NCBI GenBank assembly: GCA_020057445.1
Contig: JAGVFV010000093.1
Span: 1 to 38,985 of the forward strand
Origin: an archaeon
GTDB lineage: Archaea > Nanobdellota > Nanobdellia > Woesearchaeales > JAHJEM01
Direction of reading: 5' to 3'
Length of the DNA stretch: 38,985 nt
A model generated the notes under the pieces. That model saw nothing but the letters and a program-made list of their open reading frames with translations, made no database searches and was not told the origin of the DNA. Below, piece after piece: positions 21,219-38,194 of this stretch. The position numbers and the translations under genes are program-made. The stretch's first letter is position 1. The number at the start of each line of letters is the position of its first letter.

Positions 21219-21290
21219 GTCCCCGTAGCTTAGCGGTAGAGCGTGCGGCTGTTAACCGCAAGGTCGCCAGTTCGATCCTGGCCGGGGACG
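21219..21290 (+). tRNA. tRNA-Asn (anticodon GUU)
   Basis: Hand fold:
- acceptor GTCCCCG / CGGGGAC
- D arm GCTT-AGCGGTA-GAGC
- anticodon stem TGCGG / CCGCA with loop CT-GTT-AA
- variable region AGGTC
- T arm GCCAG-TTCGATC-CTGGC
- discriminator G. Confidence 0.9.
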
Positions 21291-21368
21291 CTCTTTTATA
21301 TCTGCATGTAATTTTTTCTCAAGACCTGAGAACTTATATTCAGCGGCCCGGATTCTTTGCATGTTTTC

Positions 21369-21391
21369 TAATACTTACAATGTAAGTATTA
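21369..21391. promoter_or_regulatory. Palindromic operator site 1 (TAATACTTACA-A-TGTAAGTATTA)
   Basis: Perfect 11-bp arms around A21380. The core is ACTTAC-N3-GTAAG. Confidence 0.6.
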
Positions 21392-21442
21392 AATATATAT
21401 TGTAATATTTATAGATAATAACTTCACGTAATAGAAAAATAT

Positions 21443-21465
21443 TAATACTTACAATGTAAGATTAA
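21443..21465. promoter_or_regulatory. Palindromic operator site 2 (TAATACTTACA-A-TGTAAGATTAA)
   Basis: Core ACTTACAATGTAAG at 21447-21460, identical to the site 1 core. Confidence 0.6.
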
Positions 21466-21519
21466 TCTCGCTTTCCTTTGCGCCGCTCAATATTCTCTCG
21501 GACTGCCGGGCACGAAAAC

Positions 21520-21528
21520 TTTATAAAT
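21520..21528 (+). promoter_or_regulatory. TATA box of the surface-protein operon
   Basis: TTTATAAAT preceded by purine-rich CGAAAA (BRE-like), about 65-70 nt upstream of the HTH start codon. Confidence 0.55.
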
Positions 21529-21532
21529 GGAT

Positions 21533-21546
21533 ACTTACGATGTAAG
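21533..21546. promoter_or_regulatory. Palindromic operator site 3 (ACTTACGATGTAAG)
   Basis: It begins 5 nt downstream of the TATA box, between the TATA and the expected transcription start. Confidence 0.6.
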
Positions 21547-21568
21547 AGTCAATCGACTTAAATATCCT

Positions 21569-21582
21569 ACTTACATTGTAAG
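21569..21582. promoter_or_regulatory. Palindromic operator site 4 (ACTTACATTGTAAG)
   Basis: It lies in the predicted 5' leader, 10-13 nt upstream of the GTG/ATG start at 21592/21595. Confidence 0.6.
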
Positions 21583-21594
21583 GTCAGTGGCGTG

Positions 21595-21786
21595 ATGAGA
21601 AAAACAACAGTGCAGTTCCCTACGTACATCTTCAAAGACCGCTCCCTTGCCATCCTCGAAGCGATGGTCGACTACCTTTCTGACAAGGGCTATTCCTGCA
21701 GAGACATCGGGCGCCTTCTCAACAGGGACGAGCGCACCATCTGGACTGTCCAGTCCCGCGTACGGCATAAAAGACATGGCAGATAG
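21595..21786 (+). CDS. Small HTH protein (LuxR / sigma-70 region 4-like), paralog 1
   Basis: 63 aa. SLAILEAMVDYLSDKGYSCRDIGRLLNRDERTIWTVQSRVRHK follows the pattern of LuxR/GerE-type HTHs. It is a paralog of 33435..33659. The TAG stop at 21784-21786 overlaps the giant gene's ATG at 21776. Confidence 0.6.
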   Translation: MRKTTVQFPTYIFKDRSLAILEAMVDYLSDKGYSCRDIGRLLNRDERTIWTVQSRVRHKRHGR

Positions 21787-24700
21787 CGACATCAAGAAAC
21801 TGGAACATCTCAGGGATGAGACGTCACGTGTCCATCATCAGCTCCTTAGGCTCTCTGCAGAAGGGAAAATGACCGATGCAGACTTCTGGCAAAACCATAA
21901 AAAACTCTTCTCCGGGCAGACTGAAGAGGAATACTACCTGCGCATCAATTTCCGCATCCGCTCCCTGAAAACAACGTCAAACGTCCGTCCGACGAGACGC
22001 GCTTTTCCTGCACTCGTCCTCTTCTCCCTTCTTTTCCTCCTCTTTGCCTATTCCCTTTCCTTTGTCTTCGGACCGACAGGATTTGTCATACGCGAGGGAT
22101 ACATCACGAAGACTCTTGACATCAACACGACATACACCGGAACGACCTACATCCCGCTCACGCTCCACAATCTTCGTACCCTCACCATCACGGGCACGCT
22201 GACAGGAGAAGGAGAGATCATCCTTCATTCGGAAAACCAAAGCTACCTCGTCTATTCCTCCAACATCTCCAACGAATCATATGCGCTGGATTATTTCCCA
22301 GACATAGCATTCAATGACACCTGTGATCAGACCTGTTCTCTTCCTGACATCACAACGACCGTCCTTGAGATCAGGCTCCCTTCAAGCACGCTGCATCTCG
22401 ACAAGATCACCTACACCTTTTTCATACGCAACAGGAAACCCTCAGCCCTCGCCCCAGTCCCTTCATTTTCCATGCGGAGCAACCGCACCCTCTCCTCCCT
22501 TGACTATTTCAGCGACCTCGACGAGGATGAGCTGTCCTTCACCCTTACTCCAAATCCGTACATCAGGCTTGCACATACGGGCCACGACCTCATCTTCGCT
22601 AGCACGGGGATCCCTGGCGAATACACCCTCACCCTCACCGTCAGCGACGGCACAGACAACATCACCTCCAATCCCTTTACGGTAACTGTGCTTGACAAGG
22701 AACCCTTCACCATCTCGGAATCAGCGCGGCACCCGCCCATACGCATAGGTGTCCCTGTCATCTGGGAAAAGAACATCACAGCACAAAACAGCCTCAACAC
22801 GACAACAGAGAAACCAGTCACCTTCTCGCTACCCCGAGAGGCGACGAGACTTTCCATCTCCAAGATCTCAGACAACACCACCCTCAACCCTGCAATCCTC
22901 GTCGTCGAGGACAATGCTACAGACATCACCTACTCCTTCACAGACACCTTCTCTCCCGAGACCCTCACTAACTACATCCTCTCCTACGAGACGCCATCGC
23001 CGACACTGACAGAAGAGACGCTCTCTGCCTCGAAAAAAAGGATAACGATATCCTCCACCCTCCCCTATGAGAACATCATCGCACGCACCATCATCACGCC
23101 AGCGGAAAAGAGCACCATCTACCTCTACCACATCGTCAACGGAGAACGACAACCCTTCCCCATCTCAGGATATATTGATCCTGATGGCGATGGTCTGATC
23201 GACATCATCGAATGGACAGTCCCCCACCTCTCAGAACAGGTGTTCGAAGTGGACATCATCATTCTCAACGTGCAAAGCTTCCCGATGATCGGCGGCAACT
23301 GGACAGTGCTCTTCAACACCACAGGCACCGCGGACCTCTCCATCTCAGCAGTCAATGGAACAACGTACAACACGAGCCCGTCAGACCTCACGCCGGTCAT
23401 GCTGCAGTGCAACTCAACAACCCTCAACTACTCTTGGATCGGCAACGACTCGATCACCTATGCCGACTATTCCTGCGACAATGCCACAGGATCATGGATC
23501 GTTCATGTCAACACCGGCGGAAGCCATCACCAAGAGTTCTCCTTCGGGAACGCGACAGTCTTTGCAGACAACTATGCCTCAGGAGCTTTCCGCCTCAATC
23601 TCAATGTTTCAGGTTCAGGGGACAACACGAGCAATGCGAGTTTCTGGGGCGAGGCTGCAAGCGACACATTTGGTTTGGCGGTTAATGGCATCGGCGATTT
23701 CAATAAGGACGGCTATGATGACTTCATGATCTGCGCACCGGCATATTCGGGCAGCAAGGGAAAGGGTTACATCGTCTTTGGAAGGCCGAGCGTCTGGAAC
23801 ATGGATACGAGCGCCTTTTCCACAGGCGACAACAAGACCAACGGCAGCTTCCAGGGAGAAGCGGCAAGTGACAGCGCCTGCAGCAGTTACCAAGGAGGCG
23901 TCGGAGTCGGCGATGTGAACGGCGATGGCTATGCAGACATCGTCATGACTGCAAGCGGGAGAGACAATTCTGGCGCAAACAATGGAGAGGCATACCTCAT
24001 CTTCGGCAACAATTCAGGTTGGGGATACAACATCAGCCTTGCCAATGCGAACGCAAGCTACTATGGCGAACAGGGAAGCGGATCCAGCGGGCTCAATTTC
24101 GCAGCAGGTCTTGGCGATGTGAACGGCGACGGGTATGACGACTTTGCTATCGGTGACTATGCCACGAAGGCCAGCAATGCCTCTGCCGCCGGAAAGGTCT
24201 ATGTCTTCTTCGGCAGGGCGGCTTCCTGGCAGACAGACCAGAACATCACCATGGCAGCAAATGCCACGTTCCTCGGCTACAACATCAGCGACAATCTCGG
24301 AGCCCGCCTCGATGGCGTCGGCGATGTGAACAATGACGGGTTTGACGACTTCCTCTTGTCGGCGTCAACCGCCAAAGTCGGGGCAAGCGTCGTCGGAAAA
24401 CTCTATCTGGTCTACGGGCGGAACACCACTTGGAGCAGGGACATCAATGTGACAGGGACGAGCGACAATACCACGAACGCGAGCTTCTTTGGGCTTGCCA
24501 GCGACAATATGGGTAATCCCAAGTGGATAGGAGATGTGAACGGAGACACGCGTCCGGACCTTGGCATGAGCGCGTCCGGACGGAACAGCAGCAAAGGAGA
24601 GACCTATTTCTGGCTCGGCGGAACAGCATTCACATTAGGCATGTATCCCAATGGAAATACAGTGAACAATGTCTCCAATGTCTCTGTCTGGGGCGAAGGC

Positions 24701-27700
24701 GCAAATGATTATTCAGGATGGCAATTCTCTGGAGCAGGAGACATGAACAACGACGGCTATGACGATATCATCATTGGGGCATATTACCGATCGCAAGGGC
24801 CTACAAACAACGGGAAGGTCCATATTGTCTTTGGAAGGAACAGCGGATTTTCCATGAACATGACGAGCGCAAGCAATGCGAGCTTCATAGGAACGAACGC
24901 CTCAGACTATCTAGGGATAACAGTGGGGTACGCAGGCGATGTGAACGGCGACCTCTTTGATGACGTCATTGTCGGCGCGCCCTATGTGGACAGCAACGGA
25001 GCGACCAATGGCGGAGAGGCATACCTCATCTTCGGACAGGGGTCAGGAGATCCGATCCTGAACATCTCCAGCCTTACCGTGTTTTCGGACAGCAGCTACA
25101 TCAATGACATCACCAACAGCACATTCTATCTTTCCAACCCCCAGAAGCTCTACATCCAGGCAACAGCAGTGGGAGGAAGCAATCTGCGCGTGGAGACAGT
25201 CATGATCCTTGCCAATTCTTCAGACCACAGCCTTCCTGTGAAGGTCAAGCTTAGGGAGACATCGACAGGTTCGAACAATTACCGCGGTTTCATCAAGGTC
25301 CGCACAGGAGCGACAAGCAAGCGCTTCAACACTGTCCAGGCGACAAACCTCTCCACGCTCTACTTCTACAACTACACCAACCAGGCAAAGTATTGGACAG
25401 TGCGTGCTGATTATCGGCAGGATCCCTGCAGCCCGAACAGCACGTGGGTGGTCACAGACACGGTAAACTGCACAGGAAAGAGCATCATCAACGCCACGTC
25501 TCTCGTCATAGGGCCGACCGGCCATCTCGTCACCAACTATACCAATGTCAACATCACGGGAAACGTCACCATCAATGCGAGCGGAAGCTGGGATGCGTTC
25601 AACAGCAAGGGATCCATATGGGTCGGTGGCAACATAACAGTAAATGGCTATGCCAACTTCACGAACGTCACCTTACGCATGAACGTCACGTGCGACGGGT
25701 GCGGAGGCATCAACGTCACCTCGACAGGGACGCTTGTCATCAATGACTCAACCAACATCACCTACGGAGAGAACGTCAACAACAACTATTTCTTTACTGT
25801 CGAACAGGGAGCAAACCTCACCATCACGAACAGCAATATCGAATTCGCAGGATGGAACGATCCTGGCACAGGGGAATTGACCCCCTCGTACGGACTCATG
25901 GTCATGACCAACAATAGTGTCTTTCGGAACGTCACCTTCCAGAACAACTATTACGACATCTTCCTCTGGTATGCCAATAATACGCTCATAGATAACTGCA
26001 GCATGACTGCTGCAAGAGGGGGATGGTCACCAGTCATCTACACCACTACAGGAAACAACTTCACGAACATGAGAGTGACAACGATCGCGGGCGCGTGGAT
26101 AGACTATAGTGCCAACATGACCTTTGAGAATGTCAGCTTCAGCGGAGGAAGCGACATCGCGCTTCAATTGACTGGATCTTCAGACAATACTTTTAGGAAT
26201 TTCCATGCAAGCTCCTCTGCTGATGCGCCAGTCTTTCTTCAGGTCAGCTCAAACCGCAATATCTTCCTCAACTCCACCATCAGCTCTGCGAGCGGAAGGG
26301 CAGTTGCGCTTAGTTCAAGCAACCTCACTGTCTTCTCCTCCACCATCTTCTCATCTGTAGCATCAGGCAGCCTTGCAAAAGACATCAGTTTTCCGTCGAG
26401 CCAAAAACACGTGGTTGAGGCGCGTAACAGCACCATCAACTCAACCAAGATCGACACTGGCTCAGGGAGCCGTGTCATCATCAGGTCGTTTGTCCGTGCC
26501 TATGTCGCCGACACGCAAGGCAATGCCGTCAGCGGAGTGAATGTCACGACATTGAACCTGACATCGCAAGAGGAAAACTACAGCTACACAGACATACAAG
26601 GCAATTCCGCCTTTGTAAACCTCACCCAGCTCTTTGTCAGCGGAACAACAGACACAAGGACAGACTATAACAATTACACATTCATCCTTTCCAAGAACAA
26701 CTACTTTTCCGAGACAGTCTCGTATAACATCACCAATGGATCGCAATACAACGTGACGCTCTACAGCTACTGCGACTTCAATGGATCAGACATGCACGTG
26801 GTAGAGGACCTGACCTGCTGGAACAGGACAGGAAGCGCAGGCCTTATCAACATCAGCCCTGGAGTGAACCTCACCTTCATCAACGTCACGCTCAACATCA
26901 CTGGAAACGTCTATATTCCGCAAAACGCTACCTTTGCCATCATCAACTCAAGCCCGGCATGGACCGCTTTCCAGGGCTCTGCCGGAAATCCGACGGCTGT
27001 TCGCGTCAGGATGCAAGGCAACATGTCAGTGAACGGCACGCTCAACATCACGAACACAGCTCTTGGGTTCAACGGCAGCTGCAACACGTGCGCAGGACTG
27101 AACATCACAGGGAACATCACCATCAACGGAAGCAAGATCACGCGCGCAGAAAGCGCGACCAACTACTTCTTCACTGTCTACTCGCCAAGCAACCTCACCA
27201 TACAGAGCTCCCAGATAGAGTACTGTGGCTGGGGAGCGATGACGCCAGTCAGCGATCCGAAAGGAGGGCTCCTCATCAAATCCAACAATTCCATCATCAT
27301 CAACACGACCTTCATCAACAACTCAGTCGACATACGATTCAGCATGGCAAACAACTCCTACATCGTCAACAACACATTCGAATCGCCGTCAAACGGCTAC
27401 AACATGGTCCTTGGCACATCCAGCAGGTACAACAACATCACCAACAACACCTTCAACGGGACAAAGACAGGGATATATTTCTCCGGATCTGACAATAACT
27501 CCTTCACCAACAACTACATCAATGTCTCTGAAAATGGGATATACCTTGCATCATCTCACAACGAGACCATCAAGCACAATTTCATAGCGGCACTCGGGTC
27601 AGGACTGCGCTTATTCACGAGCAGCGACAACTGGATCTACGATGTCAACATCACCGACGGATCAGAATATTACGGTATCCTCATTGTTGGCCATCGCAAC

Positions 27701-30700
27701 CTCTTCCAATATGTGAATGTGCACTGGTATTCTTCAAACTCGAGCGCGGTCACCTTCGCCAATATGGACGCGAACAACGAATTCTGGCGCTCCAGCCTCA
27801 TCAATGAAGGCTATGACTCACTGACTTTCTTTCGTGGCAATGCCAACCTCTTCACAGATTGCTACTTTGAATCTGCTTCAGGACGGTATGACGTCGAAGG
27901 CACGTATACTGCTTCTGCAAGCTTCAATACCATCCTCCTCAACGCCAGTCTTACTACACGAAAGGTCCTTGGACAGCCAGGAGACAAGGTCTTTGGAAAG
28001 CACCGCTTCAATGTCAAGGTCAGCGACTATGCGGGCGTTGTCCAAGGGGCAAACGTCTCCATCATAAATGGCTCCTCAACCCTTGAGAACTGGAGCCTAT
28101 CCGACGCATCAGGCCTTTCCCCCCTCCTCAACCTCAGCTCATTTTATGCAATCTTCCTCAATTCTAATCCCTCCTGGGAGTCCAACTTCACTATCTTTGT
28201 CAACAAGACAGGATACCACAACAAATCAGTCTCAGTCAACATCAGCCAAGGCTACCCCTACAACATCACCATCAACGTCCTCCCGACAGTCGCGGCCCAG
28301 GCAGCAAGCCCAAGCCCCCAAGGATATGGGAATAACGTCACCATCGGGGTGAACTTCTCAGATTCCGACGGCATAAACGACGTGTCAGCCGCAAAAGTCG
28401 AGATCGACCCGCCAGGAAGTCCTGCTGCTGAAAACTTCACCATGACTGAGATCGGCACAGTTGCCGCAACAGACAGGTTCCAGTACAACTACACCGGCTG
28501 GCACCATGGCAACTACTCCTACAAGTTCTGGATATACGACGCATCAACAGACTGGATAGACACAGCCGCGTCCACCTTCGAAGTCAATGCCAACATCACG
28601 ATCAATGTGCGCACGATAAAAGACACCTACTCCCAGATGGAGGTCGTCTACCTCACCGACCCGCCAGACGAGATATTCATCCCGCCAGCAATTCCGGCAT
28701 CGCGGCTGCCGGCATTGCAGGACAGCGTCGAACAACAGGCCATCGCCGAAAATGAGCCAGCCCAAAAAGCCAGAAACATGCAGCGTGGACTAGTTGATAA
28801 AAACAAGGACACAGGACCTCCCTTTATTACCAACGCGTTCGCCAACCCTCCGGACGTCTACCCTGGAGACAACATGACTATTTCTGCCGACATCATCGAC
28901 CCTTACGGCATCATCTCTGCATCCGCAATCATGCCCCACGAGAAAGGAGTGGACAACATATCGCTCAAGCTCACAAAAGGGACAACGTACAACGGCACGT
29001 GGCAGGTTGTCTGGCCTGTCCACGACACGATAAAGAAAGCATACACAACCACAATAACAGCGACGAACACGCAAGGAAAGAGCGCGACGTTTCCACTTTC
29101 CTGGACAGACGTCACGTACGTCTGGATTGACCAGGATGTGGAGAATGTGTCAAGCTACAGCAGGTCAGGAGCGTTATACTGCACTAATCCTGCAAACGGA
29201 TATGATGAGGGATGGGGAACAATGACAAATTCGGGATCAAATGTCTGCTATATCTTCATCAACTACACCATACCCCGCTATGTGACGAGCATAAAGGATG
29301 AACTCAAAGCAGACGGTTCCAATTACGCTGTAGTCTATGACTGTTATAACCATTCAAGTGGTGCTTGGATAAATATCGGACAGTCTACAACAGCGGAGAC
29401 CATCAATATCACACCTCCTGCTGCATGCCTCAACGGCACCAACCTCTCCATGCGCTTCGTTTCCGTAGGTGATCTGGGAGAACCCGGAGGACAATTTTTC
29501 GAAGACAAGGCATGGTGGTACAAGAAGGTCGGACCGTACTATGACAACTTCATCAACGGCACCAACACGACAAACATCGGTATCATCGGAGCCGCGGACA
29601 CGAGCACTGCACTCATCCTCCAGACCAACAACAACCAGAGCAAGATCGCCTGGGAATCAAACGTCACCATCAACAGCACCTGGAACTTCGACGACGTCAT
29701 CACCTTCAACGACTCCTACCTCTACGTCAACACCAACTTCTACCCGAACCTGAACGCTAAGGCGACAGTCACCATCTCAAACCTCTACTATAGAGACTTC
29801 ATCCTCTACAAGGACGGCAGCCTTTGCACAGACTGCCTCATCATCTCGAACACGGGGAACGGCACCATCACCTTCAATGTCAGCGGATTCTCCAACTACA
29901 CCTGGGCAGAAGGAAACCAGTCCAAGATCACGAACAACGGAACGACAGCGGTGAACGTCTCCCTCCTCATCAAGATCCAATATTACAACAGCACAGACTC
30001 CATCTGGTATGACGAGGCGCTCATCGTCAACATCACCAACGTCAGCATAGCGGCAGGAGGATCAGTGAAGCTCGACGACTTCTTCAACGGGTTTGTCAAC
30101 ACCTCTGACGACCTCATCCACGGGTCAGGATGGTACAGGGTGAACGTGAGCCTCACGAACGCCTCATCCTTCATGCTCACCAACTACAGCACAGGAGCGA
30201 TCTCTAGCGTGTACAACTTCAGCTACCTGAACAACTCAGTCCCCATTGTCCAATACGTCCAGCTGCTTCCCCCGTGGGCGCAGACCAACGATTCGCTGAC
30301 GATCTACGCCAACTGCACTGATGCAGACGTCTCTGATTCAGTCACAGCGTCTTACACTTTCTACAAGAACGGCACCAACACGAGTTCAGGGACAGCATCG
30401 ATCACGAAGAGCACGAATGCGACTGTCGCGACGCTCTCCGACTCTTCGACGACGAAGAGCGACATCTGGACAGCAAGCGTCAGCTGCAAGGACAGCTACA
30501 ACTCATCAGCCTACACAAACTCATCCACAGTCACCATCCAGAACAGCGTGCCACAGACAAACCTTGTCCTCCTCCTCCCGACGAACCCCAACACGACCGC
30601 GTACCTCAACTGCACCTTTGCCATCGCCGACAATGACACGACAGACCGCCTGACTGTCTTCTACAGATGGTACAACAACAGCGAGCAATATTCCAACGGA

Positions 30701-31927
30701 ACGCTCGTCTACAGCCTCACGAACAACTACACACTTCTTTCCAACGCAACCACGTCCAAAGGAGACACGTGGACCTGCTCCATCAACGCCACCGACGATA
30801 TCGGTGTCAATAATTTCACCAACTCATCTTCTGTCACCATCGCAAATACCATTCCCACGGTTCCCGCTCTCGAGGTCCCGACGAGCGAGAATTTCACAGT
30901 CCATAACCGATCCACCACCTTCAACTGGTCCAACAGCACTGATATGGATGGCGACGCCATCACCTACGACATAGACATCTCCTCAGATACTGCGTGCGCA
31001 GGAGGAGGATTCACAGACACCGGCCTGACAGTATCTCAATATACCTACGCCAGCGAGCTCTGCACCCAGGACGAGACAAGCCTCCTCTACAACTGGACTG
31101 TTCGCGCCTGCGACCCGACTGGCTGCAGCGCCTGGACAACGCCATGGAACTTCTCCATCGAGCCTTGGATCGTCATCGCCTTCGCCACAGACAGCATTGA
31201 CTTTGGCACGTGGCAGGTGAGCGACGAGAACACCTGGAATGATACGTCAGACAACCACCCTCCTCCCTTTGTCATAGAAAACAACGGCAATGTCTACTCC
31301 AACCTCACCAATGTCACAGCGAACGCAAGCCTCTGGAGGTCCCCGCTCGCAGGCCTTGGCACCCACTACTTCCAGATCAAGGTCGACGAGACCGCGGAAT
31401 CGACATCCTTTGACTGGGGGACAAGCCAGACCACCTACATGAACCTCACTTCGACCAACCAATCCCTCATCAACAGGCTCGGCTATAATCCCCTAGCAAA
31501 CAGCGCACAGCTCGACATCAACATCACGCTACCCCAGAACGAGCCGGCAGGAAACAAGACAGCGGCGATCATCCTCTGGTTCGAACAGACGCCATCGACA
31601 GCCATTCCATCCTGTGATGGATATTATGCACTAGGATACTGCTGGTACCAAGACAACACTACAGAAACAAGCTGCGACACCATCTGCCTAGACCACGGAG
31701 GCTGCGTCAATGAGAATTGGAACGATAACAATGAATGTTCTGTCTGCGCTCATTTCAATCAGGAAAATGAAGGATGCTTTGAGGATGCCTCTTCGTATAC
31801 ACCGCTCTTATTCAGGGACGGAGTCCCAAATGGTGTTTGTAATTATAGAGACTCAGGAACAAGCCAAGACTGTGCAAGCACAGGTCCAGATGAATTTGCC
31901 TATAGGATGTGCGCATGCGAAACGTAG
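21776..31927 (+). CDS. Giant N-terminally anchored surface protein (3,383 aa): cadherin-like domain, 7 FG-GAP repeats, two right-handed beta-helix modules, Ig-like repeats and a Cys-rich C-terminal domain
   Basis: The frame is uninterrupted. ATG at 21776 is chosen because the upstream extension to 21647 overlaps the HTH gene out of frame. Domains seen:
- about 85 aa of cytoplasmic N-terminus, then TM AFPALVLFSLLFLLFAYSLSFVF (about 22000-22070)
- cadherin/dystroglycan-like domain LDYFSDLDEDELSFTL...TLTVSDGTDN
- seven GD(V/F/M)NxDGxxD FG-GAP blades (about 23630-25050)
- PbH1-like beta-helix repeats (about 25440-26470 and 26770-27960)
- 12 Cys in the last approximately 105 aa
- very dense N-X-S/T sequons throughout. 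Confidence 0.9.
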   Translation: MADSDIKKLEHLRDETSRVHHQLLRLSAEGKMTDADFWQNHKKLFSGQTEEEYYLRINFRIRSLKTTSNVRPTRRAFPALVLFSLLFLLFAYSLSFVFGPTGFVIREGYITKTLDINTTYTGTTYIPLTLHNLRTLTITGTLTGEGEIILHSENQSYLVYSSNISNESYALDYFPDIAFNDTCDQTCSLPDITTTVLEIRLPSSTLHLDKITYTFFIRNRKPSALAPVPSFSMRSNRTLSSLDYFSDLDEDELSFTLTPNPYIRLAHTGHDLIFASTGIPGEYTLTLTVSDGTDNITSNPFTVTVLDKEPFTISESARHPPIRIGVPVIWEKNITAQNSLNTTTEKPVTFSLPREATRLSISKISDNTTLNPAILVVEDNATDITYSFTDTFSPETLTNYILSYETPSPTLTEETLSASKKRITISSTLPYENIIARTIITPAEKSTIYLYHIVNGERQPFPISGYIDPDGDGLIDIIEWTVPHLSEQVFEVDIIILNVQSFPMIGGNWTVLFNTTGTADLSISAVNGTTYNTSPSDLTPVMLQCNSTTLNYSWIGNDSITYADYSCDNATGSWIVHVNTGGSHHQEFSFGNATVFADNYASGAFRLNLNVSGSGDNTSNASFWGEAASDTFGLAVNGIGDFNKDGYDDFMICAPAYSGSKGKGYIVFGRPSVWNMDTSAFSTGDNKTNGSFQGEAASDSACSSYQGGVGVGDVNGDGYADIVMTASGRDNSGANNGEAYLIFGNNSGWGYNISLANANASYYGEQGSGSSGLNFAAGLGDVNGDGYDDFAIGDYATKASNASAAGKVYVFFGRAASWQTDQNITMAANATFLGYNISDNLGARLDGVGDVNNDGFDDFLLSASTAKVGASVVGKLYLVYGRNTTWSRDINVTGTSDNTTNASFFGLASDNMGNPKWIGDVNGDTRPDLGMSASGRNSSKGETYFWLGGTAFTLGMYPNGNTVNNVSNVSVWGEGANDYSGWQFSGAGDMNNDGYDDIIIGAYYRSQGPTNNGKVHIVFGRNSGFSMNMTSASNASFIGTNASDYLGITVGYAGDVNGDLFDDVIVGAPYVDSNGATNGGEAYLIFGQGSGDPILNISSLTVFSDSSYINDITNSTFYLSNPQKLYIQATAVGGSNLRVETVMILANSSDHSLPVKVKLRETSTGSNNYRGFIKVRTGATSKRFNTVQATNLSTLYFYNYTNQAKYWTVRADYRQDPCSPNSTWVVTDTVNCTGKSIINATSLVIGPTGHLVTNYTNVNITGNVTINASGSWDAFNSKGSIWVGGNITVNGYANFTNVTLRMNVTCDGCGGINVTSTGTLVINDSTNITYGENVNNNYFFTVEQGANLTITNSNIEFAGWNDPGTGELTPSYGLMVMTNNSVFRNVTFQNNYYDIFLWYANNTLIDNCSMTAARGGWSPVIYTTTGNNFTNMRVTTIAGAWIDYSANMTFENVSFSGGSDIALQLTGSSDNTFRNFHASSSADAPVFLQVSSNRNIFLNSTISSASGRAVALSSSNLTVFSSTIFSSVASGSLAKDISFPSSQKHVVEARNSTINSTKIDTGSGSRVIIRSFVRAYVADTQGNAVSGVNVTTLNLTSQEENYSYTDIQGNSAFVNLTQLFVSGTTDTRTDYNNYTFILSKNNYFSETVSYNITNGSQYNVTLYSYCDFNGSDMHVVEDLTCWNRTGSAGLINISPGVNLTFINVTLNITGNVYIPQNATFAIINSSPAWTAFQGSAGNPTAVRVRMQGNMSVNGTLNITNTALGFNGSCNTCAGLNITGNITINGSKITRAESATNYFFTVYSPSNLTIQSSQIEYCGWGAMTPVSDPKGGLLIKSNNSIIINTTFINNSVDIRFSMANNSYIVNNTFESPSNGYNMVLGTSSRYNNITNNTFNGTKTGIYFSGSDNNSFTNNYINVSENGIYLASSHNETIKHNFIAALGSGLRLFTSSDNWIYDVNITDGSEYYGILIVGHRNLFQYVNVHWYSSNSSAVTFANMDANNEFWRSSLINEGYDSLTFFRGNANLFTDCYFESASGRYDVEGTYTASASFNTILLNASLTTRKVLGQPGDKVFGKHRFNVKVSDYAGVVQGANVSIINGSSTLENWSLSDASGLSPLLNLSSFYAIFLNSNPSWESNFTIFVNKTGYHNKSVSVNISQGYPYNITINVLPTVAAQAASPSPQGYGNNVTIGVNFSDSDGINDVSAAKVEIDPPGSPAAENFTMTEIGTVAATDRFQYNYTGWHHGNYSYKFWIYDASTDWIDTAASTFEVNANITINVRTIKDTYSQMEVVYLTDPPDEIFIPPAIPASRLPALQDSVEQQAIAENEPAQKARNMQRGLVDKNKDTGPPFITNAFANPPDVYPGDNMTISADIIDPYGIISASAIMPHEKGVDNISLKLTKGTTYNGTWQVVWPVHDTIKKAYTTTITATNTQGKSATFPLSWTDVTYVWIDQDVENVSSYSRSGALYCTNPANGYDEGWGTMTNSGSNVCYIFINYTIPRYVTSIKDELKADGSNYAVVYDCYNHSSGAWINIGQSTTAETINITPPAACLNGTNLSMRFVSVGDLGEPGGQFFEDKAWWYKKVGPYYDNFINGTNTTNIGIIGAADTSTALILQTNNNQSKIAWESNVTINSTWNFDDVITFNDSYLYVNTNFYPNLNAKATVTISNLYYRDFILYKDGSLCTDCLIISNTGNGTITFNVSGFSNYTWAEGNQSKITNNGTTAVNVSLLIKIQYYNSTDSIWYDEALIVNITNVSIAAGGSVKLDDFFNGFVNTSDDLIHGSGWYRVNVSLTNASSFMLTNYSTGAISSVYNFSYLNNSVPIVQYVQLLPPWAQTNDSLTIYANCTDADVSDSVTASYTFYKNGTNTSSGTASITKSTNATVATLSDSSTTKSDIWTASVSCKDSYNSSAYTNSSTVTIQNSVPQTNLVLLLPTNPNTTAYLNCTFAIADNDTTDRLTVFYRWYNNSEQYSNGTLVYSLTNNYTLLSNATTSKGDTWTCSINATDDIGVNNFTNSSSVTIANTIPTVPALEVPTSENFTVHNRSTTFNWSNSTDMDGDAITYDIDISSDTACAGGGFTDTGLTVSQYTYASELCTQDETSLLYNWTVRACDPTGCSAWTTPWNFSIEPWIVIAFATDSIDFGTWQVSDENTWNDTSDNHPPPFVIENNGNVYSNLTNVTANASLWRSPLAGLGTHYFQIKVDETAESTSFDWGTSQTTYMNLTSTNQSLINRLGYNPLANSAQLDINITLPQNEPAGNKTAAIILWFEQTPSTAIPSCDGYYALGYCWYQDNTTETSCDTICLDHGGCVNENWNDNNECSVCAHFNQENEGCFEDASSYTPLLFRDGVPNGVCNYRDSGTSQDCASTGPDEFAYRMCACET

Positions 31928-31941
31928 AAAATGACAAGACA

Positions 31942-33438
31942 ATGAAAAGACAAAAAATGATGGAAAGGGAATACAGGAAGTGCAGAGAAAACACCCTGCA
32001 TTCCTTCGGACTCCTCTTCCTGTCTCTAATACTATTCCTGATTATTTCCTCAGAGGCGATGGCGCTCGGTATCGCCCCATCGCGAAAAGTCGTCAACTAC
32101 GAGAGCGAATTCACAGTCCAGGCGACGCTCGTGAACAACGACGGACGGCAGATGACACTCTTCATCCTCCCGCAGGGAGAATTCGCACCCTATGTCCTGC
32201 TCGACAAGAACATCATCAAGATCACAGCAGAAGAAGGGGAAGTGAAGTTCACCTACACAGTCAAGGTGCCGAAGAACGCAACCACGCCCGGACAGAATCT
32301 TGTCCGTGTCGCATTCATAGAACTCCCTCCTGACTTCAAGAATCCACTCGTGACACCAGAGGGGCAAGTAGTGGATGTCGGAGAGAAGAGCGCGATCAGC
32401 GCGACCACAGCGATCGTCCAGCAGGTGGTTATCAACGTCCCCTTCCCAGATATCTATGTCGACGGCAGGCTCTACATCACCGGCGAGAGGGCAGGAGAGC
32501 CAGTCGCCTTCTCTGTCAGCCTCTTCAACAGGGGAAGCAAAGACACTGCAGTGGAAGGATATGTGCTTGTCAAAGGGCCGACAAACGAAGAGCTCGCCCA
32601 CATATCCCTTGGAAAAACGACACTCTCTCCAGCCCAAGAATCACGCATCGTAGGCGCCTGGACACCAGAGCACACAGGAGAATATTACGCAGAGGCCTAC
32701 ATCACCTACGGAGAGCGGACATTCACCCTCAAAGAGCAATTCACCGTCGGCGCTCCCTTCATCTCCATCGACACCCTGCGGATCGGCGCATTCCGCCTCG
32801 GCACGATCGCGAAATTCGACGTCGAACTCTCCAGCAAATGGAACAAGATGTTAACAGACATCGAAGGAGAGATGACAGTACTAAACAACAAAGGAGGCAT
32901 CGTCTCGTCATTTGAGACCACACGAAAGGACCTTCCCCCCTACGGCTCAGGCACTGTCACAGGATACTGGGACACCGCCGGAGTCACTGTCGGCGAATAC
33001 GACGTGAACGTCAAGATCAACGCAGAAGGAAAGACAAGCCAAAAGACCTTCCCGACAGTAGTCTCCATAGACTCCATAGAAGTCAAAGAAGGACAAGCAG
33101 CGATAGGACAGGTCATCGGCACAAAGAAAGGAGGCTCGACCACAAGTCTCCTCATCATCCTCGTCATAGTCCTCATCATCCTCAACATAGGAATCCTCCT
33201 CTTCTTCAGGAAAATCAAAGGCGCCCTCGGCAAGCCTCCTTCGCCACCTCAAACCCCACGGACTCCTCCACCCCCCTCCTCAACCAGGCAAGCCCCTCCG
33301 CCTGCAACCAGGCAACCATCCTCCTCGCCTGCTTCGCGACCAGCAACTCCCACCCAACCTGCACCCCGCCCTGCACCATCCCAAACTCCCACTCCACGAC
33401 AAGCAGCCCCTCCAAGTGAAACCATGGTGAACCAGTGA
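31942..33438 (+). CDS. Secreted multi-Ig (CARDB-like) protein with a C-terminal TM anchor and a Pro-rich cytoplasmic tail
   Basis: Signal peptide FGLLFLSLILFLIISSEAMA, then CARDB-like segments (for example AGEPVAFSVSLFNRGSKDTAVEGYVLV). TM is LLIILVIVLIILNIGILLFF, followed by RKIKG and an approximately 65-aa P/T/S/Q-rich tail. ATG at 31942 lies 15 nt after the giant gene's stop; in-frame alternatives are 31909, 31915 and 31957. Confidence 0.75.
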   Translation: MKRQKMMEREYRKCRENTLHSFGLLFLSLILFLIISSEAMALGIAPSRKVVNYESEFTVQATLVNNDGRQMTLFILPQGEFAPYVLLDKNIIKITAEEGEVKFTYTVKVPKNATTPGQNLVRVAFIELPPDFKNPLVTPEGQVVDVGEKSAISATTAIVQQVVINVPFPDIYVDGRLYITGERAGEPVAFSVSLFNRGSKDTAVEGYVLVKGPTNEELAHISLGKTTLSPAQESRIVGAWTPEHTGEYYAEAYITYGERTFTLKEQFTVGAPFISIDTLRIGAFRLGTIAKFDVELSSKWNKMLTDIEGEMTVLNNKGGIVSSFETTRKDLPPYGSGTVTGYWDTAGVTVGEYDVNVKINAEGKTSQKTFPTVVSIDSIEVKEGQAAIGQVIGTKKGGSTTSLLIILVIVLIILNIGILLFFRKIKGALGKPPSPPQTPRTPPPPSSTRQAPPPATRQPSSSPASRPATPTQPAPRPAPSQTPTPRQAAPPSETMVNQ

Positions 33439-33659
33439 GAGAACACAAGAGACCGGACTATGTACTCATCCCAGATACTGTATTTAGGGATCGGTCAGTC
33501 TCAGTCATGGAATCCATGGTCAGATACCTCAAGGAAGATCGGGGATTTTCCTACCATGACATAGGAAAGCTCCTCAACAGGGACGAGAGGACTGTCTGGA
33601 CAGTCTACTCCCGCTGCCAAAAGAAGGCTGTACTTACTGAAAAAGGGAAAAATATTTAA
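33435..33659 (+). CDS. Small HTH protein (LuxR / sigma-70 region 4-like), paralog 2
   Basis: SVSVMESMVRYLKEDRGFSYHDIGKLLNRDERTVWTVYSRCQKK aligns with paralog 1; the shared block is LLNRDERT(I/V)WTV. The GTG start forms a GTGA overlap with the upstream stop (33435-33438). Confidence 0.6.
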   Translation: MREHKRPDYVLIPDTVFRDRSVSVMESMVRYLKEDRGFSYHDIGKLLNRDERTVWTVYSRCQKKAVLTEKGKNI

Positions 33660-33694
33660 ATATTGCACATCAAAAAACCAAATAGGTGTGAGCA

Positions 33695-33979
33695 ATGGAC
33701 ACTATGCAATCTTCAGAATCAACTCAACAATCAACAACCCCACCACACGACATCTCGAGGCGGACGATCGTCATCCTCCTCATCCTCGTCACCCTCCTTT
33801 CTGCACTCAGCACGCTCTCAGTACTCAACGAGATCAACAAGGTCAAGCTCATGCCTACGCAGAACAACCAGGTGGCGACAGGAAAAGTACAGCTGACCAT
33901 ACTTGATCCAAACGCTCCGCAGACACAACCTCCAAACATCGCCACAGGCAAAGTCGTACTCGAAATAAAAGACAGGTGA
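33695..33979 (+). CDS. 94-aa anchored protein with two copies of an ATGKV-x-L-x-I strand motif
   Basis: Polar N-terminus, TM IVILLILVTLLSALSTLSVL, then QVATGKVQLTILD and NIATGKVVLEIKD. AGGTG Shine-Dalgarno at about 33684. Confidence 0.6.
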   Translation: MDTMQSSESTQQSTTPPHDISRRTIVILLILVTLLSALSTLSVLNEINKVKLMPTQNNQVATGKVQLTILDPNAPQTQPPNIATGKVVLEIKDR

Positions 33980-33985
33980 CACCCC

Positions 33986-34660
33986 ATGGACATCTCCAAC
34001 AAGACACTCGCAATATTCCTCGTCGCGGCAATCGTGCTCTCGCTTGGAGGAACAATGCTCTCCCTCAATTCGCTCAATAAGATAGGGCCGACGGGGATGG
34101 CATCAACACAGATAGGTCGTGTCAATCTTACTATCCTCTCAAATTCCGATATCACTCTTGGGCATCAACAGATAGAATTCGGGATAGGTGTTGTGAATAC
34201 GTCTAGTGGTTGTAAATATGCCAATCTGACGCAAAACGCGACGAATGGTTTCTTTGGTAATTGTTGGGTGAACCAAGCGCAGATGCCCAACAGCGTTGTT
34301 GCGAATGAGACTAATTTTTGGTCTATCCAGAATGACGGAAACGTCAACATCACGCTCACTGCGACGAGCACACAGAAGAATTGGAGCAACTTCATCGGCA
34401 ACTGCACTGTTACAGATGAACAGAACTGGTATCGCTTTGCCGCATTCAATAACGCGACAGAGTCGGGGATCTCATGCCAGGGCATGAACACGACAGGCTG
34501 GACAAACTTCACCGGAGCCCAACAAGATGTTTGCAACAGCCTCGACTATGTTGATACCCGTGATACCATCGCGGTCGTACTCAATCTCTCCATCTGTCAG
34601 TCAAACTATCCGACAGGATACAAGAACGACAACGTCACGTTCCAATCAGCAGCAGCATGA
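33986..34660 (+). CDS. Secreted Cys-rich, heavily sequon-laden protein (224 aa), paralog A
   Basis: N-terminal hydrophobic signal/anchor LAIFLVAAIVLSLGGTML. The mature part has 6 Cys and 13 N-X-S/T sequons (my count). AGGTGA Shine-Dalgarno overlaps the upstream stop. It is a paralog of 37505..38194. Confidence 0.75.
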   Translation: MDISNKTLAIFLVAAIVLSLGGTMLSLNSLNKIGPTGMASTQIGRVNLTILSNSDITLGHQQIEFGIGVVNTSSGCKYANLTQNATNGFFGNCWVNQAQMPNSVVANETNFWSIQNDGNVNITLTATSTQKNWSNFIGNCTVTDEQNWYRFAAFNNATESGISCQGMNTTGWTNFTGAQQDVCNSLDYVDTRDTIAVVLNLSICQSNYPTGYKNDNVTFQSAAA

Positions 34661-35859
34661 AACCTTTTCTCCTTTTTTTGATTTTCATTGCTTGCATCCC
34701 TACGATAACAGCCATGGGGATACAGGGAGTTGTCCTCAAAGACACATTATTCTTCCAGCCAGGAATGGAACGGCACTATGACCTCACCTTTTCCACCAAC
34801 TCTGGGTTCACAGAGGATTATGTCCTCTATGCACATATGCTGCTTGGAGAACAATCCCCTGTCGATCTCACTTCGTATGTCACCATCGATAAATATTATG
34901 TCAAAGAAGTCCCAACAGGATCTGTCATCCCCTTCACCGTCGACCTGAAACTTCCCGAAACGATTGACGTCCCAGGCATCCATGAAATCCGCGCAGGAGC
35001 AAGGGAAACCGGCACCGTAGGTGGTGGAGGGATGGGAGCGCTTACCGCAGCTGAACTGCGCATAATCGTCATTGTCCTCTTCCCTGGCGAATATGGTGTT
35101 GGAGGATTCATCACCACCAGCGTGAATGAAAACCAGACACTCCCCTTCAAATTCACCATCAGCAACTATGGCACGTCGATCTTGCAGGCAAAAGGGCGGG
35201 TAGGAATATATAAAGAAGGAGAATCCCTTCTTCTCGGCGTCGCACGGTCAGATACTTATCAGGTCAACTCAACAGGCAGCAGGGAATTCTTTGCCTTCTT
35301 CAACACGACAGGACTAAGTCCGGGCGACTACTATGCCCTTGGCACCCTGATATGGAGCAAGAATAACGAAACCCAATACAATGCGACTTTCAGCATAGGA
35401 TCCAAAAGCGCGTTCATCGTCGACTATACCAAAGAAGCATATGTAGACACGGTCAACAAGATGGAATTCATCGTCCGCTCACTTTGGAACAACAAAATCA
35501 ACAACATCTATGTCGATGCCTTCCTTCTCGATAAAAATAATAAGACAATCGCATCCTTCCCTACCACGTCCAAACAGCTCAGCCCCTGGCAGACAGATAC
35601 GGTCCTTGGATACCTAGACACGAAAAATGTTCCCGAGGGAAATTACACACTGCGCATGCGTCTCAATTACGACACCAGCCAAACCACATTCGAAGGCAAT
35701 ATCTCCATCCTTCCAAAGCCTCCGGCAGAAACACCGCAGCCCGAAGTTAAGAAAGAACACGCATCACTCCCCCGCTATGTCAGTATCATGTTCATCATCA
35801 TAGGCGCACTTCTTATCATGCTCCTCATTCTCGTTTTCATCATCATAAAAAGGAGATGA
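34657..35859 (+). CDS. Secreted multi-Ig (CARDB-like) protein with a C-terminal TM anchor, paralog of 31942..33438
   Basis: Signal peptide MKPFLLFLIFIACIPTITAMG, CARDB-like segment NQTLPFKFTISNYGTSILQAKGRVGIY, C-terminal VSIMFIIIGALLIMLLILVFIIIKRR. ATGA start/stop overlap at 34657-34660. Confidence 0.75.
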   Translation: MKPFLLFLIFIACIPTITAMGIQGVVLKDTLFFQPGMERHYDLTFSTNSGFTEDYVLYAHMLLGEQSPVDLTSYVTIDKYYVKEVPTGSVIPFTVDLKLPETIDVPGIHEIRAGARETGTVGGGGMGALTAAELRIIVIVLFPGEYGVGGFITTSVNENQTLPFKFTISNYGTSILQAKGRVGIYKEGESLLLGVARSDTYQVNSTGSREFFAFFNTTGLSPGDYYALGTLIWSKNNETQYNATFSIGSKSAFIVDYTKEAYVDTVNKMEFIVRSLWNNKINNIYVDAFLLDKNNKTIASFPTTSKQLSPWQTDTVLGYLDTKNVPEGNYTLRMRLNYDTSQTTFEGNISILPKPPAETPQPEVKKEHASLPRYVSIMFIIIGALLIMLLILVFIIIKRR

Positions 35860-35862
35860 ACA

Positions 35863-36291
35863 ATGAAGAAAAGACAAGCACTCCTCTTCCTTATCGCCTT
35901 TTTTTTTCTTATCTCTGCAGTCACTTCAATACTCTATGGCATATTCGCCCGGCCATTCGAGAAAATAACAATCCAAGTCAATGGTACCATATCAGGAGGC
36001 AATACATTAGGATTTAATGTTGCTACAGATGCGCTTGCCTTTGGCCACGTCCCCAGACATGCAACAGGCAAACGCTATCTTATTCTTACGAACGGGCTGT
36101 CTCAACCAATTACCGTCAAGATCTATGACACTGGCAACATCTCCCCCTACCTCACCGTCAACGAAAGCATTATCCGTCTTCCACCGCAATCCGAGCACAA
36201 CATCTCCATACTCCTGACACCGACGGACTCGGCAGCAGGGTATTACGAAGGATTCATCACAGCAGCATACTACCGTCGCTTCATCTCCTGA
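35863..36291 (+). CDS. N-terminally anchored single Ig-like (PapD/ASH/MSP-like pattern) domain protein, 142 aa
   Basis: TM ALLFLIAFFFLISAVTSILYGIF, then LAFGHVPRHATGKRYLILTNGLSQPITVKIY...LTVNESIIRLPPQSEHNISILLTP, the beta-sandwich pattern seen in ASH/PapD-like domains. The start is 3 nt after the upstream stop, with AGGAGA upstream. Confidence 0.6.
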   Translation: MKKRQALLFLIAFFFLISAVTSILYGIFARPFEKITIQVNGTISGGNTLGFNVATDALAFGHVPRHATGKRYLILTNGLSQPITVKIYDTGNISPYLTVNESIIRLPPQSEHNISILLTPTDSAAGYYEGFITAAYYRRFIS

Positions 36292-37504: not shown

Positions 37505-38194
37505 ATGGTATCCAATAAAACACTAGCCCTTCTCATCGTTGTCACTGTGCTTCTTTCTGTCTCTGCGCAGTTCATCAGCATCTCAAGGCTCGCTCAGATA
37601 CAAAGGCCATCTATACCAGAAGGTACTGGAATGGTATCAACACAGACAGGTCGTGTCAACTTCACTATTTCCTCTAATTCTGATATCACTCTCGGGCATC
37701 AACAGGTGGATTTTGGCTCTGGTGTTATCAACGTGTCTAGTGGTTGTAAATATGTCAATCTGACTCAAAACGCGACGAATGGTTTCTTTGGCAATTGTTG
37801 GGTGAACCAGGCGCAGGCGCCAAACACAGTTGTCGCGAATGAGACCGCTTTTTGGTCTATCCAAAATGACGGAAACATCAACATCACGCTCACTGCGACA
37901 AGCGCACAGAAGAATTGGAGCAACTTCATCGGCAACTGCTCTGTCTCCTCAGAAGCGAATTGGTATCGCTATGCAGCATTCAATAACGCAACTGAAACAG
38001 GAGTTTCGTGCCAGGGTATGAACATGACAGGTTGGACAAATTTCACCGGAGACCAACAAGAGATTTGCACAAGCCTCGACTACCATGACACCTATGATAC
38101 CATCGCAGTCGTCCTCAATCTCACCATATGCCAGTCAAACTATCCAACAGGATACAAGAACGACAACGTCACCTTCAGCGCGGCAGCAGCATAA
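37505..38194 (+). CDS. Secreted Cys-rich, heavily sequon-laden protein (229 aa), paralog B
   Basis: Signal peptide MVSNKTLALLIVVTVLLSVSA. All 6 Cys and most sequons are shared with paralog A. Long identical nucleotide runs occur, for example 35 nt at 37905-37939 matching 34371-34405. ATG at 37505 is chosen because the ORF-track start at 37355 overlaps the methyltransferase gene. TATA-like CTTATATAT lies about 30 nt upstream. Confidence 0.75.
   Translation: MVSNKTLALLIVVTVLLSVSAQFISISRLAQIQRPSIPEGTGMVSTQTGRVNFTISSNSDITLGHQQVDFGSGVINVSSGCKYVNLTQNATNGFFGNCWVNQAQAPNTVVANETAFWSIQNDGNINITLTATSAQKNWSNFIGNCSVSSEANWYRYAAFNNATETGVSCQGMNMTGWTNFTGDQQEICTSLDYHDTYDTIAVVLNLTICQSNYPTGYKNDNVTFSAAAA

Follow-up and report, generated by a model that had tools for sequence, protein, structure and literature searches.

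A giant adhesin-like surface protein of a DPANN archaeon lies in a conserved operon and shares a C-terminal domain with a small partner protein

Results

A giant gene within an eight-gene operon

The window analysed here is the entire public contig JAGVFV010000093.1 (38,985 bp), from a woesearchaeal assembly (GCA_020057445.1), and 26% of it is occupied by one gene for a protein of 3,383 amino acids (aa), referred to below as the giant. It is the second of eight genes that run on the same strand in the order HTH1-giant-p509-HTH2-p94-p224-p400-p142 (21595-36291). Packing is tight, with neighbouring genes either overlapping (by 4-11 nt) or separated by 3-36 nt: HTH1 overlaps the giant's ATG by 11 nt, 14 nt separate the giant from p509, and p509/HTH2 and p224/p400 each overlap by 4 nt. 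We found the operon in 25 genomes of DPANN archaea (tiny archaea of symbiotic type) and in two metagenome contigs. This conserved eight-gene surface-structure operon is apparently undescribed; among the top-ranked literature hits, none joined DPANN with WxL, chaperone-usher or donor-strand terms, or with TasA. The only part common to all proteins encoded in the giant's position is a C-terminal module, and the second half of this module is homologous to p224. The genes and features are as follows.

21374-21582, + strand: four CTTACA-N-TGTAAG palindromes, candidate operator sites (motif count)
21595-21786, + strand: HTH1, a 63-aa protein consisting only of a helix-turn-helix (HTH; HTH_38 and HTH_23 below threshold)
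21776-31927, + strand: giant open reading frame (ORF), 3,383 aa, with an alternative start, Met32, at 21869
31942-33438, + strand: p509, signal peptide, immunoglobulin (Ig)-like part, C-terminal transmembrane segment and Pro-rich tail
33435-33659, + strand: HTH2, a paralogue of HTH1
33695-33979, + strand: p94, p224-type N-terminus and helix, then two 'ATGKV.L.I' strands
33986-34660, + strand: p224, conserved N-terminus, helix, TG[FYM]A motif and shared beta-sandwich
34657-35859, + strand: p400, a p509 paralogue with signal peptide, Ig-like part and C-terminal transmembrane segment
35863-36291, + strand: p142, an N-terminally anchored ASH/PapD-like beta-sandwich, last gene of the operon
37505-38194, + strand: a second p224 copy (74% identity) outside the operon

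A C-terminal module conserved across DPANN

One genome per species was scanned for the p509 family with a three-sequence alignment as the query, which gave 25 loci in Woesearchaeota, Pacearchaeota, Nanoarchaeota, Aenigmatarchaeota and Parvarchaeum, and pieces of the window were searched with phmmer against all ORFs of the loci. Upstream sequence was available for 24 loci, namely 22 of the 25 from the scan together with L001 and L002. In every one of these 24 the ORF preceding the p509-type gene (the slot protein), between 313 and more than 3,331 aa long, carries the C-terminal module. The recurrent order is the slot protein, sometimes a small HTH protein, a p509-like protein, one or two p224-like proteins, a p400-like protein and a p142-like protein, the last being present in 11 other loci. 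Homologues of HTH1, 46% identical, occur in the same cluster of L001, L005, L008, L010 and L025. The module of the giant has two halves.

30848-31162, + strand: aa 3025-3129, Fn3-like first half of the conserved module (phmmer, AlphaFold, Foldseek)
31163-31597, + strand: aa 3130-3274, shared beta-sandwich of ~145 aa, the proposed docking or assembly domain (phmmer, hhalign)

The last ~240 aa of the slot protein correspond to both halves in 23 of the 24 loci, L020 having the Fn3 half only. The Fn3-like half is kept in 24 counterparts, the window giant included. Its model has a predicted local distance difference test score (pLDDT) mostly of 60-91, and FN3 structures lead its Foldseek list at probability 1.0, with expectation (E) values of only 1e-3 to 4e-2. 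The shared sandwich was detected by phmmer in 23 loci at E 1e-11 to 1e-32. Alignment of profiles with hhalign, in which A3 comprised C-terminal sandwiches from 19 large proteins and A4 comprised 16 p224-family proteins, paired the large-protein sandwich with residues 50-220 of p224 over 146 columns (99.55%, E 2.2e-23). The shared domain has no sequence match in Pfam, NCBIfam or PDB. Conserved Trp residues of A3 read SLW.S and W.N[VL] by eye, not W-x-L.

When the last 574 aa of the giant were used as the query, proteins of 670-940 aa were recovered, mostly with LamG domains. Their alignments cover aa ~2600-3270 of the giant and in no case its Cys-rich end, and their contigs carry the same neighbour genes. 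Slot ORFs of very large size are also found elsewhere, those of L003, L004, L010 and L013 being at least 3,136-3,331 aa and cut by the locus edge. The cargo of the giants in L003, L010 and L013 consists of two to six LamG domains, beta-helix, disaggregatase repeat and Ig-like parts, with no FG-GAP. As the cargo differs while the module is constant, the adhesin-like modules are interchangeable. Separately, we noted a diversity-generating retroelement (reverse transcriptase, bAvd and target protein) at 3016-8174 of L002, 2-7 kb upstream of the cluster; its target is a LamG and FGE-sulfatase protein that shares a module with aa ~395-530 of the giant. No reverse transcriptase match was found among the window ORFs scanned.

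Partner proteins

p224 is essentially a putative N-terminal targeting region joined to the shared sandwich. The N-terminus follows M[DE]ISN[KR]-T-L-A ahead of a helix in 39 of 40 family sequences, and [TS]G.[AVGT], typically TG[FYM]A, stands at residues 31-45 in all 40, followed by G.V.LT. An AlphaFold model built from 25 sequences (pLDDT 80.7, predicted TM-score 0.68) has a helix at residues 5-31 and a beta-sandwich, with a linker of low confidence at 33-55 between them. Class III signals carry the pattern [KRDE][GA][ALIFQMVED][ILMVTAS]x3 before a hydrophobic helix. This FlaFind-type pattern fits one of the 40 sequences, with Thr at position -1 in 33 of them, and the p224 N-terminus therefore looks unlike either a class III signal or the usual Sec signal.

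Foldseek comparison of the p224 model with PDB gave a best E of 0.021, and the top of the list is almost all donor-strand pilins: FimA, the Pyrodictium cannula protein CanA (probability 0.98, TM-score by target 0.57), Hyper2 (0.99 and 0.58), Csu, PapE, FimG and the Sulfolobus thread subunit. We treat these neighbours of a predicted structure as a lead rather than a test. Sequence searches gave no match of p224 in PDB even at E<=10, and none of the 16 family members matched Pfam WxL at E<=1.

The product of p94 and a 67-aa protein of L022 (11215-11418) consist of the p224-type N-terminus and helix with one or two short 'TGK + alternating hydrophobic' segments; both might be membrane-anchored strand donors. 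For the p509/p400 family the most frequently matched Pfam model was WxLIP_HBD, hit by 13 of 38 members with a best E of 2.5e-6; the score of p400 is 25 bits (E 2e-5) against a cut-off of 28.9. WxLIP_PGBD was matched by 2 of the 38, and p509/p400 profiles found nothing significant among PDB sequences. p142 has an N-terminal helix and an ASH match of 29.9 bits, above the cut-off of 27. The C-terminal ~75 aa of p509 (33210-33438) form a Pro/Ser/Thr-rich tail on the cytoplasmic side of its transmembrane segment, which was seen in none of the 37 homologues examined.

Reality and topology of the giant

The giant's frame is free of stops from 21647 to 31927 on the + strand, and the first ATG, at 21776, gives 3,383 aa with no internal stop, just as a first-pass annotation of this DNA had it. 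The whole gene is present in both public call sets, at 3,383 aa in that of JGI, where the product is named 'parallel beta-helix repeat protein', and at 3,352 aa from Met32 in that of NCBI. By simple arithmetic, more than 3,400 stop-free codons at about 50% G+C are not a chance frame. G+C content at third codon positions (GC3) is even along the ORF (0.63-0.75), and its DNA repeats are short and diverged (50-nt FG-GAP units of <=76% identity, with a longest exact repeat of 23 nt), so that repeat-driven misassembly is unlikely. The giant ORF is real. Its N-terminus comprises two features.

21776-22003, + strand: aa 1-76, charged N-terminal region, predicted cytoplasmic (34% charged)
22004-22075, + strand: aa 77-100, sole strongly hydrophobic helix, then GPTGF (Kyte-Doolittle)

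The charged cytoplasmic N-terminus had been put at ~85 aa; its charged character was borne out, while its length is 76 aa. A phmmer search of aa 1-76 against the locus ORFs returned only the self-match. The helix has a Kyte-Doolittle value of 2.48, every other window of the giant is at or below 1.32 and no hydrophobic segment lies at the C-terminus, in agreement with the annotation of one transmembrane helix and no C-terminal anchor. Net charge is +5 over the 15 aa preceding the helix and 0 over the same length behind it. The giant thus resembles a signal-anchored protein, with a single N-terminal transmembrane helix and the N-terminus inside. It is acidic (301 D+E against 166 K+R) and contains 10.4% Asn. 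It holds 188 NxS/T sequons against 73.5 expected from composition, with none before aa 117, and this excess and placement fit an N-in topology with a heavily N-glycosylated ectodomain.

The GPTGF that follows the helix resembles the GPTGM after the helix of the giant's own p224 (common motif GPTG[MF]). We considered TG[FY][AV] after the helix as a common trait of the large proteins and rejected it: it is strict only in the giant and in L018 (YTGFAV), with weaker variants in L016, L019 and P0001, and is absent from the remaining large proteins. The motif is a hint only. The N-termini of the counterparts range from short classical, cleavable-looking signal peptides (P0005, L012, L017) to long extensions, with L016 and L013 also having long N-regions ahead of the helix. 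N-terminal anchoring is therefore not a family trait.

Modular architecture

Ahead of the conserved module and behind it, the giant is built of the following parts.

23585-25135, + strand: aa 604-1120, seven-blade FG-GAP beta-propeller (Pfam; DNA and protein repeats)
25523-26770, + strand: aa 1250-1665, beta-helix module 1 and beta-sandwich (Pfam; internal duplication)
26771-28273, + strand: aa 1666-2166, beta-helix module 2 and beta-sandwich, a duplicate of module 1 (Pfam, TIGR03804, duplication)
30227-30847, + strand: aa 2818-3024, two paralogous Ig-like modules of ~100 aa beginning N-S-V-P (39% identity)
31598-31924, + strand: aa 3275-3383, Cys-rich mobile C-terminal module with 10 conserved Cys (phmmer, alignment A6, AlphaFold)

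Several parts of the architecture drawn in the first-pass annotation proved correct. The seven-blade FG-GAP region matches Pfam FG-GAP at E 4.7e-33 (113 bits, cut-off 22.1) and has exactly seven DxNxDxxxD calcium-binding motifs between aa 641 and 1063, with a period of ~69 aa, and seven DNA repeat copies. The two beta-helix modules match Pfam Beta_helix at 6.2e-16 (58.9 bits, cut-off 25.9) in five stretches, with a TIGR03804 match of 19.6 (cut-off 19.45). They are duplicates of each other, aa 1258-1431 and 1706-1890 being 40% identical. A CarboxypepD_reg-like sandwich had been proposed after each beta-helix. The duplicated, paralogous sandwiches are there (aa 1516-1662 and 2022-2166, 26-29% identity), but the family label falls below threshold, at 18.9 bits for copy 1 in the whole-protein search (17.3 in the segment scan) and 15.2 bits for copy 2 in the segment scan against a cut-off of 32.3. 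Three modules beginning N[ST][VI]P do lie at 30227-31162, the first two as listed and the third (N-T-I-P) being Fn3-like; modules of the N-S-V-P type also occur in P0003-P0011 and in L002, L005-L007 and L013.

Other labels held less well. The cadherin/dystroglycan-like domain is not supported: only Big_9 (E 0.017), He_PIG (E 0.031; 15.2 bits against 24) and PKD came up for this region, at E 0.017-0.13 and well under the cut-offs, and cadherin models gave no match in the segment scan of the giant. Of the Ig-like segments, most such stretches are without any Pfam family match. In addition, a ~200-aa module at aa ~395-600 (window 22960-23575) has no Pfam match and recurs in large surface proteins of L002, L017-L019 and L027 (phmmer, E to 3e-47). 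A homologue search with aa 1-620 came back empty, which we ascribe to candidate selection, since local phmmer finds these relatives.

The Cys-rich end

A Cys-rich C-terminus had been annotated as the distal tip of the protein. The Cys-rich end is there, with 12 Cys within the last 104 aa; its role as a distal tip is not supported as stated (see Discussion). A phmmer search of 1.84 billion representatives gave 48 relatives at E<=1e-3, with a consensus of ~100 aa, C.GY..G.CWY.G..G.SC..VC..HGGC...NWND...C.VC.HF....C....P....C.YR....Q.C....R.C.C. The module is nearly always at the extreme C-terminus, occasionally in 2-3 copies, which stand in tandem in some proteins, and its carriers include bacterial type-IV-pilin-like proteins (N_methyl, 5 of 47) as well as LamG, fn3, VWA, subtilase, beta-helix and dockerin proteins. 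It was modelled by AlphaFold at pLDDT 84-93 and has no sequence match in Pfam, NCBIfam or PDB. MGAT5 was tried as a label and left unused, being too weak (sequence E ~1, Foldseek E 0.033). Among the 24 slot proteins only the window giant has this domain, which is an add-on from an unannotated mobile family. The relatives of aa 3275-3383 (P0013-P0059) form an unannotated family in their own right. One of them, P0021, has the domain at aa 1573-1673 of 2,265, and P0088, a 4,357-aa 'parallel beta-helix repeat protein', falls in the same 90% identity cluster as P0021.

Upstream region and neighbouring genes

All four palindromes lie between a tRNA-Asn gene and HTH1, where shuffled sequence would give 0.02 copies, and the motif was not conserved near the clusters of other genomes. 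They are the likely operator for the 63-aa HTH protein, as we predict it. The tRNA-Asn(GTT) gene (21219-21291) stands directly upstream of the operon that encodes the Asn-rich, sequon-laden giant. Downstream, the second p224 copy lies past a convergent tRNA (uracil-5)-methyltransferase gene (36281-37408, - strand).

Neighbouring genes are archaeal, among them TrmB, DUF460, NMD3, a TFS-type zinc ribbon, a Hel308-like helicase, a DnaG-type Toprim protein and HerA, and close relatives of the operon proteins are labelled as Nanoarchaeota metagenome-assembled genomes (MAGs). At 1608-3023 this archaeal contig encodes a SurA-like protein (SurA_N and PPIC rotamase domains), a type typical of bacterial periplasmic chaperones. 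A nucleoside 2-deoxyribosyltransferase-thymidylate kinase fusion (5695-6825), an unusually long, 562-aa ThyX-like neighbour (6827-8515) and a nearby dCMP deaminase gene (9089-9574) together form a small pyrimidine-salvage cluster.

Discussion

The giant is a surface protein, probably sugar-coated, of a DPANN archaeon. That it is modular, adhesin-like, extracellular and encoded by a small-genome archaeon agrees with the first-pass annotation, the relatives of its operon partners all being in DPANN MAGs. The label 'giant adhesin-like surface protein' is right, yet such proteins are ordinary among DPANN. What the operon adds is a proposal for how the giant is mounted. With moderate confidence, we propose that the operon from HTH1 to p142 encodes a DPANN surface complex in which the giant serves as the large, variable subunit, with its conserved module docking and its cargo facing outward. 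The giant would be exported with its N-terminus remaining cytoplasmic, and the module is predicted to dock onto p224, the membrane-anchored p509/p400 or both, with beta-strand complementation between sandwiches as the probable mode of binding. Densely N-glycosylated, the FG-GAP propeller, beta-helix and Ig-like modules would point away from the cell and recognise ligands, of which host-cell glycans or envelope proteins are the most plausible. The Cys-rich domain would be an extra, exchangeable binding module specific to this giant.

The Fn3 and sandwich module is probably the docking or assembly part rather than a free distal tip, because aa 3025-3275 are conserved, homologous to p224 and always encoded beside genes for membrane-anchored Ig-like proteins, and because counterparts with classical signal peptides have no other conserved element able to retain them. 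An N-anchored free rod with a distal C-terminus, as first annotated, is not supported as stated, as the conserved p224-homologous module precedes the Cys-rich end. Several observations weigh against our proposal. The long hydrophobic helix could anchor the giant alone. In the giant the module is followed by a further domain, unlike in every other member, and its copy of the shared domain was modelled at pLDDT 35-57, with seven homologues covering the domain. For p224, no Foldseek E value is better than 0.02 and none reaches 1e-3, and no family member matches the Pfam WxL, Peptidase_M73 (TasA), archaeal pilin or SipW-signal models. Matches to WxLIP_HBD are weak, and the generic Ig families CARDB (12 of 38) and Filamin (6 of 38) are hit nearly as often. 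Finally, the case for host attachment is drawn wholly from domain types and DPANN biology (PMC10266531).

The giant might instead be a self-sufficient type II adhesin held by aa 77-100, with the Cys-rich domain as its distal ligand-binding tip and neighbours that are merely co-located. Its N-terminus speaks for this: a charged N-region of 76 aa, an uncharged helix of 24 residues, a charge of +5 before and 0 after it, and Pro directly after the best small-residue site (VFG|P). A hydrophobic core of 24 residues is longer than usual for signal peptides, and Pro after a cleavage site disfavours cutting by signal peptidase I. The long N-regions of L016 and L013 point the same way, and the Cys-rich domain ends many unrelated secreted proteins, including pilin-like ones, as an exposed binding module would. 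We nevertheless judge it unlikely, because it leaves unexplained why the Fn3 and sandwich parts are the only ones conserved in 24 counterparts, why the module is homologous to p224 and why it keeps its constant place upstream of p509-type genes, and because N-termini in the family are so varied.

A second alternative, which we also rate as improbable, is that p224 forms a filament, either by donor-strand complementation, the mode of TasA, Abp, cannula and chaperone-usher pili, or as a type-IV-pilin-like helix bundle, in which the giant is the tip or a minor subunit, p94 a membrane-anchored terminal strand and p142 a PapD-like helper. Archaeal donor-strand filaments are established (PMC9245690, PMC12518558, PMC9715654), and the top structural neighbours of p224 are donor-strand pilins. 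The p224 N-terminus is invariant, and TG[FYM]A...G.V.LT is conserved yet outside the confident core (pLDDT 47-57); the candidate donor segment, aa 36-55, is both conserved and of low confidence in the monomer model. Also in keeping with a filament are p94 and the 67-aa L022 protein, which consist only of N-terminus, helix and strand-like segments, and p142, whose ASH/PapD-like match is above the Pfam cut-off. Set against this, all fold matches are statistically weak, and hhalign pairs 'VNLTI' with 'WNFSIE' at the Fn3/sandwich junction, so that the candidate strand may be the first strand of the domain itself. The class III pattern fits a single sequence of the 40, the archaeal pilin (Pfam and NCBIfam), archaellin and TasA models are unmatched, and among the genes that recur in the clusters we saw neither an assembly ATPase nor a platform protein, and neither a prepilin peptidase nor a signal peptidase dedicated to the system.

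It is far less probable that the C-terminal module acts in sorting or secretion and not as a structural docking domain, in the manner of the C-terminal domain of type IX secretion cargo, with p509/p400 recognising and perhaps removing it. Dissimilar cargo does share one C-terminal beta-sandwich, at the very end of the protein in 23 other loci, but 109 residues follow the module in the giant, which a strictly C-terminal signal should not tolerate, and the domain accounts for nearly all of the mature part of p224, which would then be a signal without cargo. That the giant frame results from faulty assembly or joins several genes into a chimera is scarcely credible: the contig is metagenomic, but we found no sign in support, and the lack of internal stops, the even GC3, the absence of long near-identical DNA repeats, the full-length NCBI and JGI calls and the slot ORFs of at least 3,136-3,331 aa in four other genomes all count against it.

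Returning to the proposed surface complex, the closest parallel in layout is with the WxL (Csc) clusters of Lactobacillales and Bacillales, with which the gene set agrees part by part. In these clusters the shared domain occurs by itself in a small protein and, preceded by binding domains, as the C-terminal part of a large one. Their WxLIP (DUF916-DUF3324-TM) has two Ig-like domains and a C-terminal transmembrane segment (TM), with a WxLIP strand predicted to insert into the WxL domain, and the clusters also contain a small protein with an anchor (PMC10599100, PMC1534035). One wxl gene of L. plantarum is known to have a small regulator that consists of an HTH only (PMC13522541). In the operon described here, p224 would be the small shared-domain protein and the giant the large one with variable domains ahead, p509/p400 have the signal peptide, Ig-like part and C-terminal transmembrane segment, p142 is an anchored protein of ~140 aa, and a small HTH-only regulator is also present. 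The differences are equally plain. The hosts are DPANN archaea in all 25 genome loci, with no peptidoglycan. The giant's C-terminal 264 aa have no Pfam WxL (PF13731) match at E<=5, and by eye on the alignment the shared domain is without the two Trp-x-Leu motifs. p224 has a conserved N-terminal signature and a long helix in place of the usual signal peptide, large subunits of more than 3,300 aa occur and the WxLIP matches are weak.

A similar logic applies to two-domain tip adhesins, for which we compared FimH/FimA, Csu and the archaeal TasA superfamily (AbpA/AbpB, CanA/CanX and the Saci_0406 thread). Like these, the giant joins an adhesive part to a C-terminal domain homologous to a small subunit, and for AbpB a combination of strand donation with distal adhesin domains has been proposed (PMC9245690). 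As in donor-strand systems, the operon holds a PapD-like/ASH protein (p142), and the p224 model is nearest to their pilins. However, no sequence or fold match is significant, there is no usher, the donor strand is only a candidate and p224 precursors keep a long N-terminal helix, unlike donor-strand subunits. Homologues of AbpA, CanX and the thread are found mainly in Thermoproteota (PMC12518558), unlike the DPANN lineages here. As the WxL, TasA and type IV pilin sequence tests fail, the operon is best said to work like those systems and not to be one of them; by analogy, the giant's layout would work like a large WxL protein or a two-domain tip adhesin.

Giant surface proteins of DPANN are known, including SPEARE-type proteins of Nanohaloarchaeota and LamG/PKD proteins (PMC10266531). 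The window giant is like them in being very large, acidic, rich in Ig-like domains, N-terminally targeted and presumed to contact a host, and its counterparts in the operon slot carry LamG as the LamG/PKD giants do. Unlike SPEARE-type proteins it has no VirB4/TraG-like ATPase domain, and family scans found no adjacent secretion ATPase; it is defined instead by the Fn3 and sandwich module and by its p509/p224/p400/p142 partners. Integrin-alpha-type FG-GAP and parallel beta-helix proteins are also similar, but these modules are generic and other slot members are without FG-GAP.

Little is known of how DPANN archaea keep hold of their hosts, and annotation of their giant surface proteins seldom goes beyond generic domains. 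What is new here is a testable hypothesis for how such giants are mounted, by way of one small conserved module that is homologous to small proteins of the operon and is always accompanied by two membrane-anchored Ig-like proteins. With the module, the N-terminal signature of p224 and the Cys-rich family as sequence handles, the cargo repertoire can be followed in metagenomes. Should the resemblance to WxL clusters be due to common descent and not to convergence, the assembly of surface complexes in Firmicutes and in DPANN would be linked. More tentatively, the operon may encode an undescribed DPANN-wide appendage for cell attachment, the archaeal equivalent of WxL clusters and donor-strand pili. 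It would plug interchangeable cargo of 300 aa to more than 3,300 aa into a p224 fibre or platform anchored by p509/p400 and have its own N-terminal sorting signature (M[DE]ISNK-T-L ... TG[FY]A). Were this possibility true, the operon would specify an apparatus by which small-genome archaea attach to other cells.

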